The notes: generated by a model not told the origin, from the sequence alone. A DNA stretch of 20,000 bases from an uncultured Methanosarcinales archaeon (GCA_964492935.1 CAZBLF010000002.1:45449-65448); one strand, 5' to 3'; shown: positions 4,008-16,737, numbered from the stretch's first letter. A program made the numbers and translations.

Positions 4008-4060
4008 GATGTAGCGGATACACTAATTCTATTTATATCTTAGTGCATAGCAATCAAGAA

Positions 4061-7423: not shown

Positions 7424-8500
7424 ATGTACGCAGTTCTAGCCCTCAAAGACGGAACTATTTTTGAAGGCAAAGGCTTCGGTGCTATTAAAGAAACCGCCGG
7501 CGAAGTAGTCTTCAACACCTCCCTCGTCGGCTATGAAGAGTCACTTACCGACCCCTCTTACAAAGGCCAGCTCCTAACACTAACCTATCCGTTAGTAGGA
7601 AATTACGGCGTAAGAAAAGAACATTTCGAATCAGACAAAATCCAGGTGCAAGGATTTATCGTACGCGAGTTCCAGGAACACCACGCCCATAAAGACGCAA
7701 CCAAAACCATTCACGAATTTCTAAAGGAACACAATATTCCAGGCATCTCAGATATCGACACCCGTATGCTTACAATCAAAATCAGAGAGCACGGAGTCAT
7801 CAATGGTTGCATAAAAACCAGCGACAAACCCATAGACACCGCAGCATTAGTAAAAAAAGCAAAAGAGCTAGATGACTACGGAGAAAAGAATCTCCTACCA
7901 GAAGTTTCTGTTCGCGCCCCCGAGTTCATCGATGCAAAAGGAGAAAAAACAATCGCCATGATCGACACCGGAGTTAAACTTTCAATCATCAGAAATTTCA
8001 CGAAAAGAAAAATTAACGTTTGGAGATTTCCCTACAACACTACAGCAAATGAAATAAGAGAAAAGAACGTACAAGGACTCTTCATCGCCAACGGCCCAGG
8101 CAATCCAGAACAAGCAACAGAAGCAATCGAGGCAGTAAAACAACTAAAGGAAGAACTCCCCATCACCGGAATCTGCCTAGGAAATCAGATAGTTGCTTTA
8201 GCATTAGGCGGAAAAACCTACAAATTAAAGTTCGGCCACCGTGGAACAAATCAACCGGTAAAGAATATCAAAGAAAACAAAGTCTACATAACGAGCCAGA
8301 ACCACGGATTCGCCGTAGACAAAGAATCACTACGCAACACAGACTTAGAAGTCTCTTATATCAATCTCAACGATGGCAGCGTAGAAGGAATGCAACATAA
8401 ATCTCTACCCATCCAAACCGTCCAGATGCACCCCGAAGCGAATCCCGGACCGCAGGATACAAACGGATTTTTTGATGACATAGTGAGGAATCTAAAATGA
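7424..8500 (+). CDS. carA: Carbamoyl-phosphate synthase small subunit
   Basis: GEVVFNT, YEESLTDPSYKGQ, TYPLVGNYG, NGPGNP, catalytic GICLGNQ, KFGHRG, TSQNHGF and HPEA. Confidence 0.97.
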   Translation: MYAVLALKDGTIFEGKGFGAIKETAGEVVFNTSLVGYEESLTDPSYKGQLLTLTYPLVGNYGVRKEHFESDKIQVQGFIVREFQEHHAHKDATKTIHEFLKEHNIPGISDIDTRMLTIKIREHGVINGCIKTSDKPIDTAALVKKAKELDDYGEKNLLPEVSVRAPEFIDAKGEKTIAMIDTGVKLSIIRNFTKRKINVWRFPYNTTANEIREKNVQGLFIANGPGNPEQATEAIEAVKQLKEELPITGICLGNQIVALALGGKTYKLKFGHRGTNQPVKNIKENKVYITSQNHGFAVDKESLRNTDLEVSYINLNDGSVEGMQHKSLPIQTVQMHPEANPGPQDTNGFFDDIVRNLK

Positions 8501-9782
8501 CCCAAGCGATGCCCAATAACAACACTCTTCATCAAGCTAACAACAGTTTTAAGAACTTCAATATTCCAATAATAGGCAATCTTATGAATAATGAACTTAA
8601 ACCAAATGAATCTGAGATGAAAGAAATACATTTTTGGGAGCTTCCAGACACAGTCAGATTGAGATTAAATCTTGAATCTTTACATCATCTATTCAAATCC
8701 TCTGATCCAGTGAGTACAGCGGAGAGGTTGGGGATATCGAAATCATATCTAAACCATTTGAAGAATGGCAGGCACGCAATAAAGCCCTCTCAACTACTAA
8801 TCCTTACGAGGCTTTTTGAGAAAGACCCCTTAGAAGTAGAGAAGCAAATAATTTCGATGAACTCAACTCGAGGAGGGCAAGCAAGATGCACGTTACCAAT
8901 CGGGCAAATGAAGAAATTGCCTCGCTGATAGGCCATTACTATGGAGATGGAAGCATCATTACAAAAAAGCCCCAGTTCAAATTTTGCAATTTTGATAAGG
9001 TCTCTCTAAACGAAGTGAAATTGTTAGTAGCAAAGCAATTCGAGTCAACACCCATTAATGTAACTGAGACTACAGTTACTTATTCCACAATTATCGGAGA
9101 GATACTCCTTCTATTTGGTGCACAGCGAGGAAGTAAACTTAAGCTAAAAAATGATGTCCCTACCTGGATCACAAACGGAAGCGATGGTGTGAAAAGCAGG
9201 TTTGTGAGAGCGTTGTTTGACGACGACGGATCAGTTTCTTCTTCCGGGAACAATAAGAACATTAATTTCCACCAAATAGTCTTCGATGAGTACAATCAGT
9301 ACTCTATAAGATTCTTAAAATCCGTGGTCAAGATACTAGAAGGATTTGAGATAATTACTCATGGACCTTACTTATCCAGAAAATACCAGATTAGCCAAAA
9401 GGAAAGGAATGTAAATTTCTTAATTATCTCGGACTGGAAGAGTCTGGAAAATTATAAGAGGAAAGTAGATTTTTTTCACTCAAAGAAAAAGAAAAGAATA
9501 ATTGATGTATTATCAAGAAAAAAGACACTGGGAAAACACGAAAGAAATCTCTTATACAAAAAGATTATCCACTTGTTCCATCCTGAAGAAGAACCATTAT
9601 CAACGGCATTCATTTCCGAAAAATTGGACATCTCCACAAGAGCAGCCCTCAAAAGGTTGAAGAATCTTCAAAGCAACAAAAAAGTGACCTTCGAAGGAAG
9701 AGTCCGAAACCGATCATTTTTATGGAAACTAAATGGAGGTGAAACCAAATACCCAAAAGACAAGATATCAAAAAAATCTTAG
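8497..9782 (+). mobile_element. Free-standing LAGLIDADG homing-endonuclease gene (HTH + two LAGLIDADG motifs + C-terminal winged HTH), split by a -1 frameshift near 8900
   Basis: ORF 8497-8928 has an HTH (TAERLGISKSYLNHLKNG). ORF 8886-9782 has ASLIGHYYGDGS, RFVRALFDDDGS and a C-terminal HTH. TTA CCA ATC GG GCA AAT GAA GAA is one base short of a continuous LPIxANEEIASLIG. A TTTTAAGA box at 8547-8554 lies upstream of in-frame ATGs at 8584 and 8617. It sits between carA and carB, which are commonly adjacent. Confidence 0.8.
9735..9742 (+). promoter_or_regulatory. Strong Shine-Dalgarno GGAGGTGA for carB, inside the endonuclease ORF
   Basis: GGAGGTGA lies 6 nt before ATA CCC AAA AGA (the MPKR start of CarB) at 9749. 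Confidence 0.75.
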
Positions 9783-12700
9783 TGATTGGTTCAGGCCCAA
9801 TTCAAATCGGACAAGCCGCTGAATATCCTTAATAGGAATCAGAGTCGACTACTCCGGTACGCAAGCCTGCAAAGCACTAAGGGAGGAAGGCTATAAAGTT
9901 GTTTTAGTAAATAGCAATCCAGCCACAATCATGACCGATGCCGACATGGCAGACGCAGTCTACATAGAACCCCTAACCGTAGAGATCGTAGAAAAAATAA
10001 TCATAAAGGAAAAGCCAGATGGCATTCTGCCAACGATGGGCGGCCAAACCGGATTAAATCTAGCAGTACAGCTACACCAACAAGGAATTCTCAAAAAACA
10101 CCACGTAGAACCACTCGGAACATCAATAGAATCCATCGAGCAAGGAGAAGACAGAGAACTGTTCAAAAAACTCTGCATAGATATTGGAGAACCTATTCCC
10201 GAATCAAAAACCGTAGAAAATCTCAAACAAGCAAAAGCATTCGAGAAAGAATGCGGACTCCCGATAGTCATCCGTCCAGCCTACACCCTCGGAGGCACTG
10301 GAGGAGGAATAGCACATACACCAGAAGAATTCGAAACCATTACCCAACACGGAATCAATCTCAGCCCCATCAAGCAAGTCTTATTAGAAAAAGCAATCCT
10401 TGGCACCGAGGGCTGGGGAGAATTCGAGTTTGAAGTGATGCGCGATAAGAACGACAACTGCATCATCATCTGTCCCATGGAAAACCTCGACGCCATGGGC
10501 ATCCACACCGGCGAGTCCATTGTAACGGCTCCAACGCAAACCCTCAACGATAAAGAATTCCAAACTCTAAGAACATCCGCAATCAAAGTAATCAGAGCAC
10601 TAAAAGTAGAGGGCGGCTGCAACATCCAGTTCTCATTCAACTACCATACTGGAGAATACGTCATCATCGAAGTCAATCCGCGTGTCTCACGATCATCAGC
10701 CCTAGCATCTAAAGCAACCGGCTACCCCATAGCAAGAATCGCTACAAAAATTGCAATAGGAATGACACTAGATGAAATTCCTAACGATGTAACCAAAGAA
10801 ACCAAAGCATGCTTCGAGCCCACAATCGACTACACCGTAGTCAAAATTCCGAGATGGCCCTTCGACAAATTCCCTACCGTAGACAAGCGCATCGGCACCC
10901 AGATGAAATCCACCGGAGAGACCATGGCGATCGGCAGAACGTTCGAAGAAGCCCTCCAAAAAGCAATCAGATCGCTAGAAGTAGACAGATTCGGATTAGG
11001 CCACGACCCCAAAGACCGCATCTGCGAAAACAAAGAGGAAATCATTCAAAATCTCAAAGTTCCAACACATAAAAGACTCATGTATATCCGAGATGCGTTT
11101 GCACTCGGCATGAACGAAGAAGAAGTAAAAGCACTCACCGGCATCAACACCTGGTTCCTCACCAAAATAAAAAACATCTACGAGCACGCCAACACCATCA
11201 CCAAAGAAAAAGAATCAATAAGAGAAGCAAAAAGAAAAGGATTTTCCGACGTCCAAATAGCAAAAATCACAAACACAAGTGAAAAAGAAATCAGAACGTT
11301 AAGAAAAGAACACAACATCCTCCCTACCTACAAAATGGTAGACACGTGTGCCGCAGAGTTCGAAGCAAAAACGCCCTATCTCTATGGAACCTACGAGCAA
11401 GAAGATGAATCCAAACCCACCAACAAAAAGAAAGTAATCATCATTGGTGGAGGCCCCATCCGAATCGGCCAAGGAATAGAATTCGATTATTGTTGTGTCC
11501 ACAGCGTCTTTGCCTTACAAGAAGAAGGCTACGAAGCCATCATTGTAAACAATAACCCAGAAACCGTTTCAACCGACTTCGATACCTCTGATAAACTCTA
11601 CTTCGAACCCTTAATTTTCGAAGACGTCATGAATATCATCGAACGAGAGCAACCGCATGGAGTAATCCTACAATTCGGTGGACAAACGCCCATTAACATG
11701 GCGATGCGCCTACAAGAAGAGGGAGTCAAAATACTGGGAACACAACCCGGGAGCATCGACACCGCAGAAAATAGAGATAAGTTCGGCGCAATCCTAGAAA
11801 CATTAAAGATTCCCAGTGCCCCCTGGGGAACCGCGAGATCAATAAATGAAGCCTTACTCAAAGCAGGCAACATCGGCTATCCCGTACTCGTAAGACCTTC
11901 CTACGTTCTCGGAGGTAGAGCAATGCAAATCGTAACGAGCGATGAAGAATTAAAGGCATATATGGAGGAAGCCGTAAAGATTTCCCCCGACCATCCCGTT
12001 CTCGTAGACAAGTACCTAGCAAACGCACTAGAACTTGATGTAGATGCATTGTGCGATGGCAAGCAAGTCTATGTCGCAGCCATCATGGAGCACATCGAGG
12101 AAGCCGGCGTACACTCCGGAGATTCAGCCTGCGTCATCCCTCCACAAAGCCTTAAACCAGAAGTCAAACAAAAAGTCATCGACTACACCAAGAAACTAGC
12201 TCTAGCTCTCAAGACAATTGGATTAATCAATATCCAATATGCAGTAAAGGATGACGTCGTCTATATTCTAGAAGCAAATCCTCGTTCATCAAGAACCATC
12301 CCCTATGTCAGCAAATCCATAGGAAAGCCCATGGCAAAAATTGCAACCCAGGTACTTCTTGGAAAAACCCTAGACGAACTAAATCTAGGAGACTATACCG
12401 AACCCACCTTCACCACCGTCAAGCAAGTCGTCTTTCCCTTTCTTAAATTACAGGGAGTTGATCCCATACTAGGACCAGAAATGAAATCCACCGGAGAGGT
12501 CATGGGAATAGATACCTCCTTCGGCAAAGCCCTCTTCAAAGGCTTCGAAGCAGCCCAGATGAAACTGCCGAAGCAAGGCAACATCATGGTTGCAATCGGA
12601 AGAGATGACCACAAAGAACAAGCCGTGGACTGGGCAAAAAGCCTAATCGAGATGGGCTTCAAGCTCTTTTGCACACCCGGAACGCGAGACGTCTTCATCA

Positions 12701-12972
12701 AGCACAACATCCCTTCAACCACCGTACCCAAAATCAGAGAGGACCCCATGATACTTGACATGATGAAGCGCAACCAAATTCATATGGTGATCAACCTCCA
12801 TCGCGGCTCCCATCCAAGAACCGACAGCTACACCATAAGACGAAAGTGCATAGAATTAAACATCCCTCTACTAACACGAATGCCCACCGCAAAAGCCGCA
12901 ATAAAAGCAATCACTTCGATGAAAGACCAAGAGTATGATGTAAAGTCGCTGCAAGCCTTTTACGCAGACTGA
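9749..12972 (+). CDS. carB: Carbamoyl-phosphate synthase large subunit; join(9749..9824, 9845..12972), 1067 aa, ATA start
   Basis: Exon 1 reads (M)[24 protein letters not shown]. Exon 2 continues (F)[31 protein letters not shown] into the 9931-12972 ORF, which has [34 protein letters not shown] and an MGS domain. Confidence 0.93.
9825..9844 (+). other. Putative 20-nt bulge-helix-bulge (tRNA-type) intron in carB mRNA
   Basis: Removing ATCCTTAATAGGAATCAGAG restores GAA TTC GAC TAC (EFDY) and the frame. The central helix CTGA(9819-22)/TCAG(9839-42) is flanked by 3-nt bulges AT^A and AG^T, with inner stem TCCT/AGGA and exon stem AGCCG/CGACT. Confidence 0.85.
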
Positions 12973-13163: not shown

Positions 13164-14231
13164 ATGAAAAAAGAAAAAAACGAAAACAAAAGTGTCCTTT
13201 ACGATGGGCTTTCTCGCCGAGAAATTATTGGCGCTTGGAAGAACACAATGGACACCAGAAAGAAGACTGGACTTGGACAGAGAGAGCTAGCGAGGCTTCT
13301 ACTAACTGAGCACCAACTAGAGATCTCAGAAAGCACTATATCGGGATGGATTCATAAGCATGTTGTTCCCTTTGCGCAAGAGAAAACACAATTCAAACCA
13401 AAACCTATTCCTCCAAAAAAGGTGCTCGAAAAGCTGTATATCCACAATCAGAAAAGTGCAAGCACGATCGCAAAGAAGTTCCATGTGTCTACAATTATTG
13501 TTATCAATTGGCTGAAAAAATACGGGGTCCGAGTAAGATCTCACACAGAATCCATGAATACAAGTATTATCCAGAGCGTATTAAGGGATCAAAAAGTGAC
13601 TAGGCCCACCAGAGAGTATGGTAAGCTCTCTCCCGAAAAGGCATATATTCTTGGAGTACTCTGCGGCGATGGATACATCGATCATAAATTCATGAAGCTC
13701 GAGATTAGAAGAGACCTTGATTTTATGAACGAATTCATTAGATGTGTTGAGGAGGTATACGGTTTACGATACAAGCACTATTACTACAAGCACAGAAATA
13801 GCTATATTGTGAACGTGAACGCTCAAATTATTTGCAAAGATTTACTCAACCACGACACCTTCCGAACTCGAACATGGAGAGTCCCTAAAGCAATATCTGA
13901 ATCAAAGAGCAAGGGAGTGGTGAGCCATTTCCTAAGAGCACTCTTTGACAGCGATGGTTCTTCTAGTGGATCAACCGTAAACATGACGCTTGCGAATGGA
14001 AGTGCATTAAGAGAGGTATCGTCGCTTCTTACAAAACTAAACATTTCCAATAGGGTGAAAACTCGAAGCCCTTACAGCACACTAACGATATCACATAAGG
14101 ACAACCTAAGAAAATTCATAGAAGAAATCGGATTCACCATTCAAAGAAAAAATGATAGAACCAAAAAATACATACAACACGGACGAAGAGCTGTACGGTC
14201 TTTTGCACCCCATAGTCAAAAAGTGGTTTAA
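13164..14231 (+). mobile_element. Free-standing LAGLIDADG homing-endonuclease gene with two N-terminal HTH modules (intact, 355 aa)
   Basis: HTHs GLGQRELARLL...ISESTISGWI and LEKLYIHNQKSASTIAKKFHVS..VINWLKKYGV. LAGLIDADG motifs AYILGVLCGDG and HFLRALFDSDGS. Overlaps lhr by 80 nt. Confidence 0.85.
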
Positions 14232-16737
14232 GAGGAAGTTTAAGACGTTCGCGAAAGCCCAGAAATGCGCGATAATGCCAATCCATAATCGCGAGAACGT
14301 GTTAGTTTCATCTCCAACCGGATCCGGCAAAACGTTAACAGCATTCATGGCCATTCTCAACGAATTAGTAGACTCCTCGGAAAAGAACATTCTTGAGGAT
14401 AGAGTTTATGCTGTTTACATAAGTCCGCTTAAGGCACTTTCTTCAGACATCCACCACAATCTCATCGAACCCCTAGAAGAGATGGAAAAATCCGCAAAGA
14501 AAGAGCTCAATATCAGAGTTGGTGTACGAACCGGCGACACCACCCCCTACCAACGATCAAAGATGCTCAAGAACCCGCCCCACATTCTCATCACAACGCC
14601 AGAATCCCTAGCTATCTTAATCTGCTCCCCAAAATTCCAGGAACATCTCAAAAAAGTAGAGTGGTTTATCTTAGATGAAGCCCACGCCATCGCAGAAAAC
14701 AAGCGAGGAGTCCACGCATCTATCGTCATGGAACAACTCTCCCAACTCTCTCCCCACATGTGTCGCATCGGATTATCCGCAACCATCTCACCACTCGAAA
14801 AGATAGCACATTTCCTTGTCGGTAACGATAAGGGTAAACCAAGACCTTGCAAATTAGTAGATGTGCAATACCTCAAAGAAATCGACCTCAAAGTCATGTC
14901 ACCCGTCAAAGATCTCATTGGCGTCGAGCACACCTTAATGCACAACTCCATGTACAAGTTAATTAACAAATTAGTACAAGACCACAAGACAACCCTAATC
15001 TTCACCAACACCCGAGCTGCAACCGAACGGGTAGTCCACAACCTCAAAGATAAATATCCGAAAAACTACGACGAAAACATAGGAGCACATCACGGTTCTC
15101 TAAGTAAAGAACTCAGATTAGATATCGAAGAAAGATTACGAGCAGGAAAAGTAAAGGTAGTTGTTTGTTCAACCTCTTTAGAATTAGGAATCGACATCGG
15201 TTCTATTGACTTAGTTATCTGCCTAGGCTCTCCAAAATCAGTTGCGCGAGCATTACAACGAGTAGGACGATCCGGTCACCGACTAACAGCAAAAACCAAG
15301 GGAAGAATAATTGTACTAAACCGAGACGACCTCATCGAATGTTCCGTCTTAGTAAAAGATGCAATCGAAAAGAAGATCGACCGCATCCACATCCCGAATA
15401 ACTGTCTCGACGTCCTAGCCCAGCAAATCTACGCAATAGCCATCCAGGATAAAATCCAAGTAAATGACCTTTTCAACATGATTACGAGATCATACTGCTA
15501 CCGAGATCTAGACCGAAAAGACTTCCAGGACGTTATAGATTACTTAGCAGGCAAGTTCGTCTCCTTAGAAGACCGCTACATCTACGCCAAGATCTGGTAC
15601 GACGAAGACACCGGCATGATTGGTAGAAAGGGAAAGATGGCAAGAGTCATCTACATGACCAACATCGGAACCATCCCAGAATCAATTGCTGTACGCGTTA
15701 AAATCGGCGATCAACCCGTAGGTACCATTGAAGAAGCCTTTCTAGAAAAGCTCAGACCAGGAGACGTCTTCCTATTAGGTGGAAACACCTACCAGTTCAA
15801 GTTTGCGCGCGGGATGGTCGCCCAAGTCTCTGCGTCCGTCAACCGACCACCCAATGTTCCGGCATGGTTCTCCGAAATGTTGCCATTAAGCTATGATCTA
15901 GCAAGCGACATCGGCAAGTTCAGAAGACTTATTAGCCAACAATTCGATGCAAATAAGAAAAAGCCAGAAATTCTAGAATGGATTCACGAGTATCTCTATG
16001 TAGATCAAAAAGCGGCTGAATCAATTTACAGTTACTTCGACGAACAACACAAGTTCGCAAAAATCCCCTCAGATTCCAGAATCATTGTCGAACACTACAT
16101 CGATGGAACCGGAAAACGATTTTCCGTCTTCCATTCCCTCTTTGGTCGCAGGGTAAACGACTGCCTATCAAGAGCAGTAGCCTTCGCCATCGGCAGAACC
16201 CAACACAAAGACGTAGAGATCGGCATCAGCGACAACGGCTTCTATATCATCGCTCCCGGAAAAGTAAATGTGCTGAAAGCCTTTAAACTCCTAAAAAGCA
16301 AAGACCTCAGAAAAGTAATGAATATGGCCATTGACAAAACAGAAGTTCTGAAACGAAGATTCAGACACTGCGCAGCACGTTCACTCATGATCTTAAGAAA
16401 CTACAAAGGCAGAAGAAAGTACGTTGGCAGACAACAAGTAAGTTCAATGATCCTATTAAGCGCTGTAAGAAGAATCTCCCAACACTTCTCCATCCTCAAA
16501 GAAGCCAGAAGAGAAGTCCTAGAAGACTTAATGGATATCGACAATGCCCAAATCATCGTAGAAAAAATAGAGAAGAAAGGCATCAAGATAGAGGAGTTCA
16601 CAACGGAAATACCAAGCCCCTTCGCATTAAATCTAGTAACACAAGGCAAGACCGACATCATGAAGATCGAAGACAAAACAGAATTCTTACGAAGAATGCA
16701 CAATGAGATTCTGGCAAAGATTAGTTTGAAGAAGTGA
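14152..16737 (+). CDS. lhr: Lhr-like ATP-dependent SF2 helicase
   Basis: SPTGSGKT, YISPLKAL, RTGDT, ITTPESL, DEAH, GLSAT, FTNTR, HHGSLS, SLELGIDIG, QRVGRSGH and LDVLAQ. Confidence 0.92.
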   Translation: MIEPKNTYNTDEELYGLLHPIVKKWFKRKFKTFAKAQKCAIMPIHNRENVLVSSPTGSGKTLTAFMAILNELVDSSEKNILEDRVYAVYISPLKALSSDIHHNLIEPLEEMEKSAKKELNIRVGVRTGDTTPYQRSKMLKNPPHILITTPESLAILICSPKFQEHLKKVEWFILDEAHAIAENKRGVHASIVMEQLSQLSPHMCRIGLSATISPLEKIAHFLVGNDKGKPRPCKLVDVQYLKEIDLKVMSPVKDLIGVEHTLMHNSMYKLINKLVQDHKTTLIFTNTRAATERVVHNLKDKYPKNYDENIGAHHGSLSKELRLDIEERLRAGKVKVVVCSTSLELGIDIGSIDLVICLGSPKSVARALQRVGRSGHRLTAKTKGRIIVLNRDDLIECSVLVKDAIEKKIDRIHIPNNCLDVLAQQIYAIAIQDKIQVNDLFNMITRSYCYRDLDRKDFQDVIDYLAGKFVSLEDRYIYAKIWYDEDTGMIGRKGKMARVIYMTNIGTIPESIAVRVKIGDQPVGTIEEAFLEKLRPGDVFLLGGNTYQFKFARGMVAQVSASVNRPPNVPAWFSEMLPLSYDLASDIGKFRRLISQQFDANKKKPEILEWIHEYLYVDQKAAESIYSYFDEQHKFAKIPSDSRIIVEHYIDGTGKRFSVFHSLFGRRVNDCLSRAVAFAIGRTQHKDVEIGISDNGFYIIAPGKVNVLKAFKLLKSKDLRKVMNMAIDKTEVLKRRFRHCAARSLMILRNYKGRRKYVGRQQVSSMILLSAVRRISQHFSILKEARREVLEDLMDIDNAQIIVEKIEKKGIKIEEFTTEIPSPFALNLVTQGKTDIMKIEDKTEFLRRMHNEILAKISLKK

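Follow-up and report, generated by a model that had tools for sequence, protein, structure and literature searches.

The closest described systems come from phages. In collaborative, or trans, homing, the free-standing endonuclease F-CphI is associated with the psbA intron of cyanophage S-PM2, and the T4 endonuclease MobE with the nrdB intron (PMC2790892; PMC6083498, in the accessible portions of both papers). In the former of these portions, the success of collaborative homing is described as depending on how close the cut site and the intron lie to one another (PMC2790892). A second T4 pair, the endonuclease MobA and the 50-nt bypass insert of gene 60, is treated as a mobile cassette in the available part of a preprint (bioRxiv 10.1101/2022.08.31.505936). 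For introns in archaeal protein-coding genes, the accessible text of a 2025 paper on archaeal splicing endonucleases cites the work on cbf5 only (PMC12397907). Our own literature search, with subscription journals outside its scope, returned neither a report of carB interrupted by a bulge-helix-bulge (BHB) intron nor one of a BHB intron that has a free-standing endonuclease as its partner. Here, we describe a locus within a 20,000-nt stretch of archaeal DNA (GCA_964492935.1, CAZBLF010000002.1:45449-65448; the whole stretch is referred to as the window) in which carB, the essential gene for the large chain of carbamoyl-phosphate synthase, is interrupted by a 20-nt insert and preceded by a free-standing gene of the LAGLIDADG homing-endonuclease family. 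At a probability of roughly 60%, we propose that the two make up a two-part selfish cassette in a tiny marine DPANN (Nanoarchaeia) archaeon, consisting of the free-standing LAGLIDADG gene and a BHB intron that lacks an open reading frame (ORF).

A 20-nt insert in carB with BHB geometry

The insert, ATCCTTAATAGGAATCAGAG (9825..9844; the window's features are on the plus strand), contains stop codons, shifts the carB frame and splits the motif AAE|FDYSG. The original prediction, which was made from the sequence of the window, had placed the end of the LAGLIDADG gene at 9782, in an overlap with carB, and the intron 42 nt further on; we arrived at the same coordinates and the same distance. In the predicted fold, a central helix of 4 bp (CUGA at 9819-9822 with UCAG at 9839-9842) is flanked by 3-nt bulges on opposite strands (AUA, 9823-9825; AGU, 9843-9845). 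Inside lies a hairpin, h' (9826-9829 with 9834-9837, UCCU/AGGA, with one extra A at 9838), and outside an exon-exon helix, h (CG/CG), joined by an outer AUCGGA/UCCGGU helix. The minimum-free-energy (MFE) structure was identical to the centroid structure, and folding 9795-9865 or 9805-9865 gave the same h-B-H-B-h' arrangement. When 9805-9865 was shuffled, 2 of 200 shuffles folded equally stably (z = -2.56).

Archaeal BHB motifs are cleaved after the second base of each bulge, a rule established for tRNA introns. Applied to the insert, this rule places the predicted cuts after 9824 and 9844 and yields the junction GAA|TTC. Exactly one cut placement both obeys the rule, with four of four central pairs, and restores IGQAAEFDYSG. 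Excision of the 20 nt joins carB exon 1 (9749..9824, up to the first base of the Phe codon) to exon 2 (9845..12972), which encodes the remainder of the large chain. The exon 2 frame is open back to 9845, and exon 1 becomes continuous with an ORF of 1013 amino acids (9931-12972) that contains CPSase_L_D2 (7.7e-100) and other CarB domains. The host genome encodes both an EndA splicing endonuclease (PF01974, 99.8 bits; G000 C25, in the region of 11548-11808) and an RtcB ligase (PF01139, 575.7 bits; G000 C27, 14240-15535).

Inserts at the same position, between the Glu and Phe codons of the motif (site B), were found at 12 loci: the window (G000), G011, L080, L048, L022, G150, G198, G414, G387, G295, G328 and G227. 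These inserts range from 18 to 42 nt and have unrelated loops. At every one of the 12, applying the BHB rule gives the very excision that brings back the motif G[EQ]A[AG]EFDYSG. The central helix is paired at four of four positions in 11 loci and at three of four in G227, and it changes on both strands in concert (CTGA/TCAG; GGCG/CGCC, GGCG/CGCT, GGCG/CGTC; GGTG/CACC). MFE folds of eight site-B loci display the helix and bulges, and both exons are open in all twelve diverged loci. Six loci have a further insert, 29-35 nt long, behind GSGA(L) (site A); it has long inner hairpins and three to four of the four central pairs. These loci were collected in more than one way. A first degenerate DNA pattern for interrupted carB was too narrow: it matched in 10 of 401 genomes, with only the G000 and G227 matches being carB, and it missed IGEAGE-type genes that a protein query found later. 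A pattern scan of metagenomes returned 69 stretches, 66 of them chance matches; the metagenome intron search yielded L080 (endonuclease gene plus 21-nt intron) and L048 (intron only).

A carB pseudogene, or 20 nt introduced during assembly, would also leave an insert that carries stop codons and shifts the frame. We regard this explanation as almost certainly wrong. The sequence across the intron and across a frameshift in the endonuclease gene (see below) is the same in contigs of four runs from four studies (X4, X8, X9 and X12), one of which may be the source of the window. One metagenome contig matches the window at 4032 of 4032 bases, and contig L061 has the same sequence at the frameshift site. 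Since both features are unchanged across the contigs of four runs, they are not an assembly slip. Furthermore, exon 2 is an intact 1013-residue ORF with all CarB domains, and the twelve diverged loci keep their exons open and maintain the BHB through compensatory changes. Joints that would mark intron-less or endonuclease-less variants were absent from the contigs of the four runs, and contigs lose rare variants. A search among sequencing runs listed 20 DNA runs that contain the stretch and no RNA run; in X4 the organism reaches a word depth of 54. Collectively, the geometry, the covariation in 12 loci and the presence of EndA and RtcB support the identification of the insert as a BHB intron, as the original prediction had it, with splicing itself being predicted.

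A separate candidate, ribosomal bypass of the gene 60 type, was tried and rejected. With GAA at 9821-9823 as the take-off codon, the sole later GAA (9836-9838) would lead to S-E-S and not to FDYSG.

The LAGLIDADG gene and the 5' end of carB

The gene upstream of the intron is present in two frames. Its 5' part (8497..8928) encodes an XRE-type helix-turn-helix (HTH) domain (HTH_3, 2.4e-5), is 42% identical to residues 1-139 of the intact G011 protein and ends at a stop codon caused by the frameshift. The 3' part (8886..9782) encodes both LAGLIDADG motifs and a C-terminal winged HTH (LAGLIDADG_3, 8.1e-6; HTH_11), is 57% identical to the G011 protein and terminates with TAG at 9780-9782, inside carB exon 1. 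Alignment with the intact 363-residue G011 homologue locates the frameshift in 8900..8910, near 8902-8907, where homology moves from the first frame (...TLPIG) to the -1 frame (NEEIASLIGH...). Inspection by eye of 8902-8907 for programmed frameshifting revealed no X_XXY_YYZ slippery heptamer in the zero frame. Judged from its reading frames, the local copy probably encodes no working endonuclease; intact copies occur in G011 (L019 4652-5743), L080, L022, G150 and G198.

Several lines of evidence bear on the identity of the encoded protein. It scores above the LAGLIDADG_3 (PF14528) cut-off of 22.5 bits in both the window (26.5) and G011 (33.3). The motifs read LIGHYYGDGS and VRALFDDDGS, and residues G153-D154-G155 and D246-D247-G248 are invariant in six homologues; in motif 2, DDG is invariant, and all but one of the six have DDDGS. 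For the fold, the G011 homologue was examined in place of the broken local copy. Its AlphaFold model has a mean predicted local distance difference test (pLDDT) score of 82.4 and a predicted template modelling (pTM) score of 0.79. A Foldseek search with this model gave 75 PDB matches at E <= 0.001, with LAGLIDADG endonucleases leading: the best matches are 7qsu (3.1e-10), I-Tsp061I, PI-PfuI, PI-SceI, I-SceI and I-DmoI, which are intein- and intron-encoded. The I-Tsp061I entry (2dch) is titled intron-encoded, and the I-DmoI entries (4un7 and 2vs7) are structures of an intron-encoded endonuclease as well. A phmmer search of PDB sequences with the G011 endonuclease produced no match.

The fold matches also include WhiA (8dy9_I, 2.3e-6; 3hyi, 1.2e-5), and HTH domains lie on both sides of the LAGLIDADG core. 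Both observations would suit a domesticated, WhiA-like DNA-binding regulator of carAB that is no nuclease, with the intron as an unrelated regulatory device. We consider such a regulator very improbable: six homologues all retain the acidic residues of the two motifs, and the gene behaves selfishly, in that it is missing from most carB-bearing relatives, is frameshifted here and sits beside unrelated genes elsewhere. The motifs, the Pfam match and the predicted fold of the homologue support membership of the LAGLIDADG homing-endonuclease family, with cleavage activity predicted. The claim that the gene is a free-standing LAGLIDADG gene was thereby borne out.

The gene occupies the junction of two otherwise contiguous genes. 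Upstream lies carA, for the carbamoyl-phosphate synthase small chain (7424..8500; CPSase_sm_chain 4.7e-53, GATase 4.1e-47), the TGA stop of which overlaps the ATG of the endonuclease gene at 8497 (ATGA). In G001, a congener without the endonuclease gene, it is the ATG of carB that overlaps the carA stop in this way. In the window, carA and carB are set apart by a 1.25-kb insertion that holds the one gene in two frames. Inside the end of that gene, and read from the sequence, is a Shine-Dalgarno-like GGAGGTGA (9735..9742), 6 nt 5' of an ATA codon at 9749 that replaces the start Met of relatives; carB exon 1 has no ATG. A TGA within GGAGGTGA closes the carB frame upstream, and the frame is open from 9743. 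The GGAGGTGA arrangement is the same in G011 and L080. Over 12 codons of carB exon 1, the window and G011 differ by six synonymous and three replacement changes, as counted by eye; given the synonymous changes, these 5' codons are therefore read in the carB frame. The window has an alternative carB start, GTG at 9782-9784, which overlaps the endonuclease stop.

ATA or ATC stands at the position of the ATG start in the three closest cassette-bearing loci (window 9735-9751; L019 5707-5723; L080, reverse strand), and this codon sits 6 nt past a perfect GGAGGTGA in the window, G011 and L080. Translation of carB in these loci would begin either at a non-canonical start or at an internal one (GTG 9782 in the window; ATG in G011).

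The missing ATG could also be explained if the whole endonuclease gene lay inside one large BHB intron, with an ATG at 8497 or 8509 joined to CCCAAAAGA at 9752. ATGCCCAA at 8509 resembles ATACCCAA at 9749, and the window, G011 and L080 all lack a standard carB start codon. We find this arrangement extremely unlikely. Of 6300 pairs of 5' and 3' positions tested in the window, 93 have a central helix with four of four pairs, and one of these gives an M...PKR product, with flanking helices of 1 and 0 bp; G011 is without a homologous pair. A perfect GGAGGTGA, moreover, precedes the ATA or ATC codon by 6 nt at all three loci.

A second free-standing LAGLIDADG gene (13164-14231, plus strand; 355 amino acids; LAGLIDADG_3 3.8e-14; N-terminal HTH-like regions) lies between carB and a gene for an Lhr-type helicase, and carB is thus flanked by two endonuclease genes. 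It overlaps the start of lhr (14152-16737) by 80 nt, and the lhr frame looks unbroken. The genome has two other LAGLIDADG-like frames (C1 and C10), beside which the open-frame listing contained no broken neighbour gene. It also has one HNH_repeat match (31 bits; G000 C2:26199-26345, minus strand), about 19 kb before the window.

Endonuclease genes and introns among relatives

The original prediction had proposed that the endonuclease gene and the intron should occur together. We examined this in two samples of genomes and by searching with the endonuclease itself. Among 41 relatives, 13 carB 5' loci from 11 genomes were readable. Two of these were interrupted (G000 and G011), both with the endonuclease gene, and no endonuclease gene was found beside any of the 11 uninterrupted loci, including congener G001; two of the 11 come from unpublished genomes (G005 and G013). 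The frames upstream of the 11 are carA, a NUDIX gene or the end of another carB copy. Both parts of the cassette are missing from G001 and from two congeners of G011.

The second sample comprised 401 genomes of the phylum, with carB in 54, of which 53 were assessable (all but G036). Interruptions were confirmed by inspecting the sequence in nine carB genes, eight of them with an insert at site B and one, that of G248, with an insert at site A only. The other 44 were uninterrupted, defined by a stop-free N-terminal match from query residue 1-8 (unpublished G005 and G380 included). The LAGLIDADG family is present in 36 of the 401 genomes, beside various genes. It adjoins carB only in G000, G150 and G198, each of which has an intron at site B; the 44 uninterrupted carB genes are all without a LAGLIDADG neighbour. 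The gene is adjacent in 3 of 8 site-B genomes versus 0 of 45 others assessed (Fisher p ~0.002, calculated by hand and uncorrected for kinship). Consistent with this, a Pfam scan of 32 upstream frames from 26 uninterrupted loci detected no LAGLIDADG domain (29 loci were fetched, three without an anchor; 32 of 45 frames of at least 100 amino acids were used, shorter overlapping ones being dropped). These frames encode carA, NUDIX, GDPD, MazG and TauE proteins, one protein without a family and one HNH_repeat protein. Finally, an endonuclease search of 185,579 species genomes yielded one further relative, L022, at 29% identity, which is directly 5' of carB and accompanied by a 42-nt site-B insert.

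Overall, all six endonuclease-adjacent carB loci (G000, G011, L080, L022, G150 and G198) carry the site-B intron; these loci belong to two deep carB lineages, and their endonucleases are as little as 29% identical. Sorted by their upstream gene, the 12 site-B loci comprise six with a LAGLIDADG gene, one with an HNH-repeat gene (G414) and five with no endonuclease gene. G150 and G295, which belong to the same genus, differ in the presence of the endonuclease gene and of a site-A intron. The intron-only locus L048 (1090-1230, reverse strand) retains a 17-nt stretch that matches, base for base, the endonuclease 3' end and carB ribosome-binding site of the window. This stretch is joined to the end of a NUDIX gene; beyond it come a hairpin and then carB, which has a normal ATG start. 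From its sequence, this remnant looks like the scar of a deletion.

A similar association is seen with a second, unrelated endonuclease-type family and with a second interrupted gene. HNH_repeat proteins (PF18780, three repeats; 429-458 amino acids from stop to stop) are encoded directly 5' of carB in three genomes: G248 (L167, 1391-2731), G414 (L163, 845-2194) and G233 (L161, 201-1487). Two of these three loci have a site-A intron, G248 at site A only and G414 at sites A and B; G233 has none. The HNH_repeat gene of G414 opens with a copy of the first 17 carB codons that ends just beyond site A. In G194 and G047, a member of the same LAGLIDADG family lies directly upstream of cysS, where a stop-containing insert of 31 nt breaks CGP|TVYD (L111 of G194, 2724-2754; L116 of G047, 2715-2745). 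The BHB cut rule restores the cysS motif, with three of four central pairs.

Other arrangements of these genes were seen along the way. In G150 (L104, 2400-2560), no stop codon separates the endonuclease frame from carB exon 1, and the frame closes at a TGA within the 21-nt intron. On unspliced RNA, translation of the endonuclease would terminate at this TGA, and splicing would fuse the two frames unless translation restarted at the internal GTG. In G119 (L131, reverse strand, ~723-1900), a gene of the LAGLIDADG family opens with a duplicate of the N-terminal ~28 residues of GlmS (MCGIIGYIG...LEYGG); a complete glmS with its own MCGIAGYVG... start then follows, such that the 5' end of the host gene is duplicated around the inserted gene. 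A GHWT(S) motif recurs near the frame starts of both LAGLIDADG-type and HNH-repeat-type genes (L104, L106, L111, L163 and L167).

The co-occurrence could have arisen without any partnership. An old, vertically inherited intron might share the locus, by descent or chance, with an endonuclease that targets the carA/carB junction or the carB 5' end for reasons of its own. The intron is the commoner of the two: in the phylum sample it occupies site B in eight genomes and the LAGLIDADG gene adjoins carB in only three. Many other genes, too, have a family member inserted at their 5' end and no visible intron, and a co-conversion tract could not be demonstrated. Yet only 8 of 53 assessable carB genes have a site-B intron and all six endonuclease-adjacent loci do; among those loci are ones from two deep carB lineages that were found by searches blind to the intron. 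In addition, a second endonuclease family pairs with a second intron site at two of three loci, and cysS repeats the pattern. On balance, we think it unlikely that the two elements are independent.

Several observations weigh against a two-part cassette all the same. In five of the 12 site-B loci, the intron persists with no endonuclease gene upstream, and in a sixth, G414, with only the unrelated HNH-repeat gene. The intron can therefore last without the endonuclease, and it may conceivably have arisen earlier and independently. In G233, the carB next to an HNH_repeat gene is uninterrupted, so not every endonuclease at the carB locus has to come with an intron. For most other LAGLIDADG-family members viewed, a non-systematic reading of open frames revealed no intron in the gene that follows (glmS, a TOPRIM-type gene, a GTPase and PHP-type genes). 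In the 35 nt around the site, G000 differs from G011 at one position and from congener G001 at seven, and all seven fall in bases that the BHB and its outer helix would hold fixed in any case; no clear co-conversion tract was seen in this interval, where one is not separable from structural constraint. Because the sampled genomes are related to one another, there were fewer independent events than the counts suggest. Last, the local endonuclease gene is frameshifted in the contigs of all four runs. The idea of a two-part selfish element, as first put forward for this locus, thus stands in part: the linkage of gene and intron held, and the pair in the window is a relic and not an active system.

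A proposed route and its described counterparts

The proposed cassette would work as follows. The endonuclease gene would have inserted between the original carB start codon and codon 2, and by entering behind the start codon it would take over the translational coupling between carA and carB. Its 3' end would supply a new ribosome-binding site for carB. EndA and RtcB would remove the intron from carB mRNA, so the interruption would cost little. The enzyme, judging from position and co-occurrence, would cut intron-less carB DNA, GGACAAGCCGCTGAAT|TCGACTACTCC, at or near the E|F junction, and repair from a cassette-bearing copy would transfer the intron and the endonuclease gene together, because the parts lie 40-110 nt apart, within one short conversion tract. 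The intron would split the recognition site and so protect the carrier. After fixation, the endonuclease gene would decay, as in its frameshifted form in the window and its deletion elsewhere, and the harmless intron would stay.

More tentatively, and with somewhat less than even confidence, we suggest that BHB mini-introns in archaeal protein genes arise in general as shields of homing-endonuclease targets, and have done so repeatedly in DPANN archaea. Each endonuclease lineage would then have an intron site of its own: carB site B and cysS for LAGLIDADG enzymes, carB site A for HNH-repeat enzymes. Repair of the break may even be what creates the insert, which would survive because it happens to be, or soon becomes, a substrate of the tRNA-splicing enzymes. 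Introns that outlive the decay of their endonuclease would account for mini-introns in conserved codons without an adjacent endonuclease gene. The recurrence of the pair in distant relatives suggests one route by which introns enter archaeal protein genes, in which a homing endonuclease would provide mobility and a tiny insert that borrows the tRNA-splicing machinery would provide immunity and harmlessness. As a practical consequence, gene callers will truncate or split carB, cysS and similar DPANN genes, and metabolic reconstructions will understate these pathways.

Compared with described systems, the carB locus is closest to phage collaborative homing. As far as the accessible portions of those papers go, both combine a free-standing endonuclease gene, located by a conserved gene, with a nearby intron that lacks a working endonuclease, and the proposed logic is the same: intron-less alleles are cut, and both parts are copied in one tract. 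The phage introns, however, are ORF-less or defunct group I introns, of the self-splicing ribozyme kind, whereas the carB insert, which at 20 nt is far below ribozyme size and too short for an ORF, is a BHB element predicted to be a substrate of the host's EndA and RtcB. The phage enzymes are HNH or EndoVII-like; here a predicted LAGLIDADG enzyme is encoded by a cellular archaeon. The carB pair would thus operate as the phage systems do without belonging to the kind described there.

The MobA/gene 60 cassette was reportedly first published in 2011. From the available part of the preprint, it shares with the carB locus a free-standing endonuclease gene and a short, non-ribozyme insert in an adjacent essential gene, neutralised by host machinery. 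The T4 insert is skipped by the ribosome, whereas the carB insert has the geometry of an RNA-splicing substrate.

BHB introns and LAGLIDADG enzymes also meet in archaeal rRNA and tRNA genes, whose introns encode I-DmoI, I-PorI and I-Tsp061I. There, the endonuclease is encoded inside a long intron of a stable-RNA gene, and here outside an ORF-less mini-intron of a protein-coding gene. The pre-mRNA BHB intron of cbf5 in Crenarchaeota likewise interrupts an archaeal protein-coding gene and was gained and lost among relatives, but it concerns another gene and phylum, and the accessible text of that report mentions no endonuclease partner (PMC2738675). If the proposed cassette is real, the phage principle of an endonuclease plus a protective insert would extend to cellular archaea, and protein-catalysed RNA splicing would be a third mode of insert removal, beside ribozyme splicing and ribosomal bypass.

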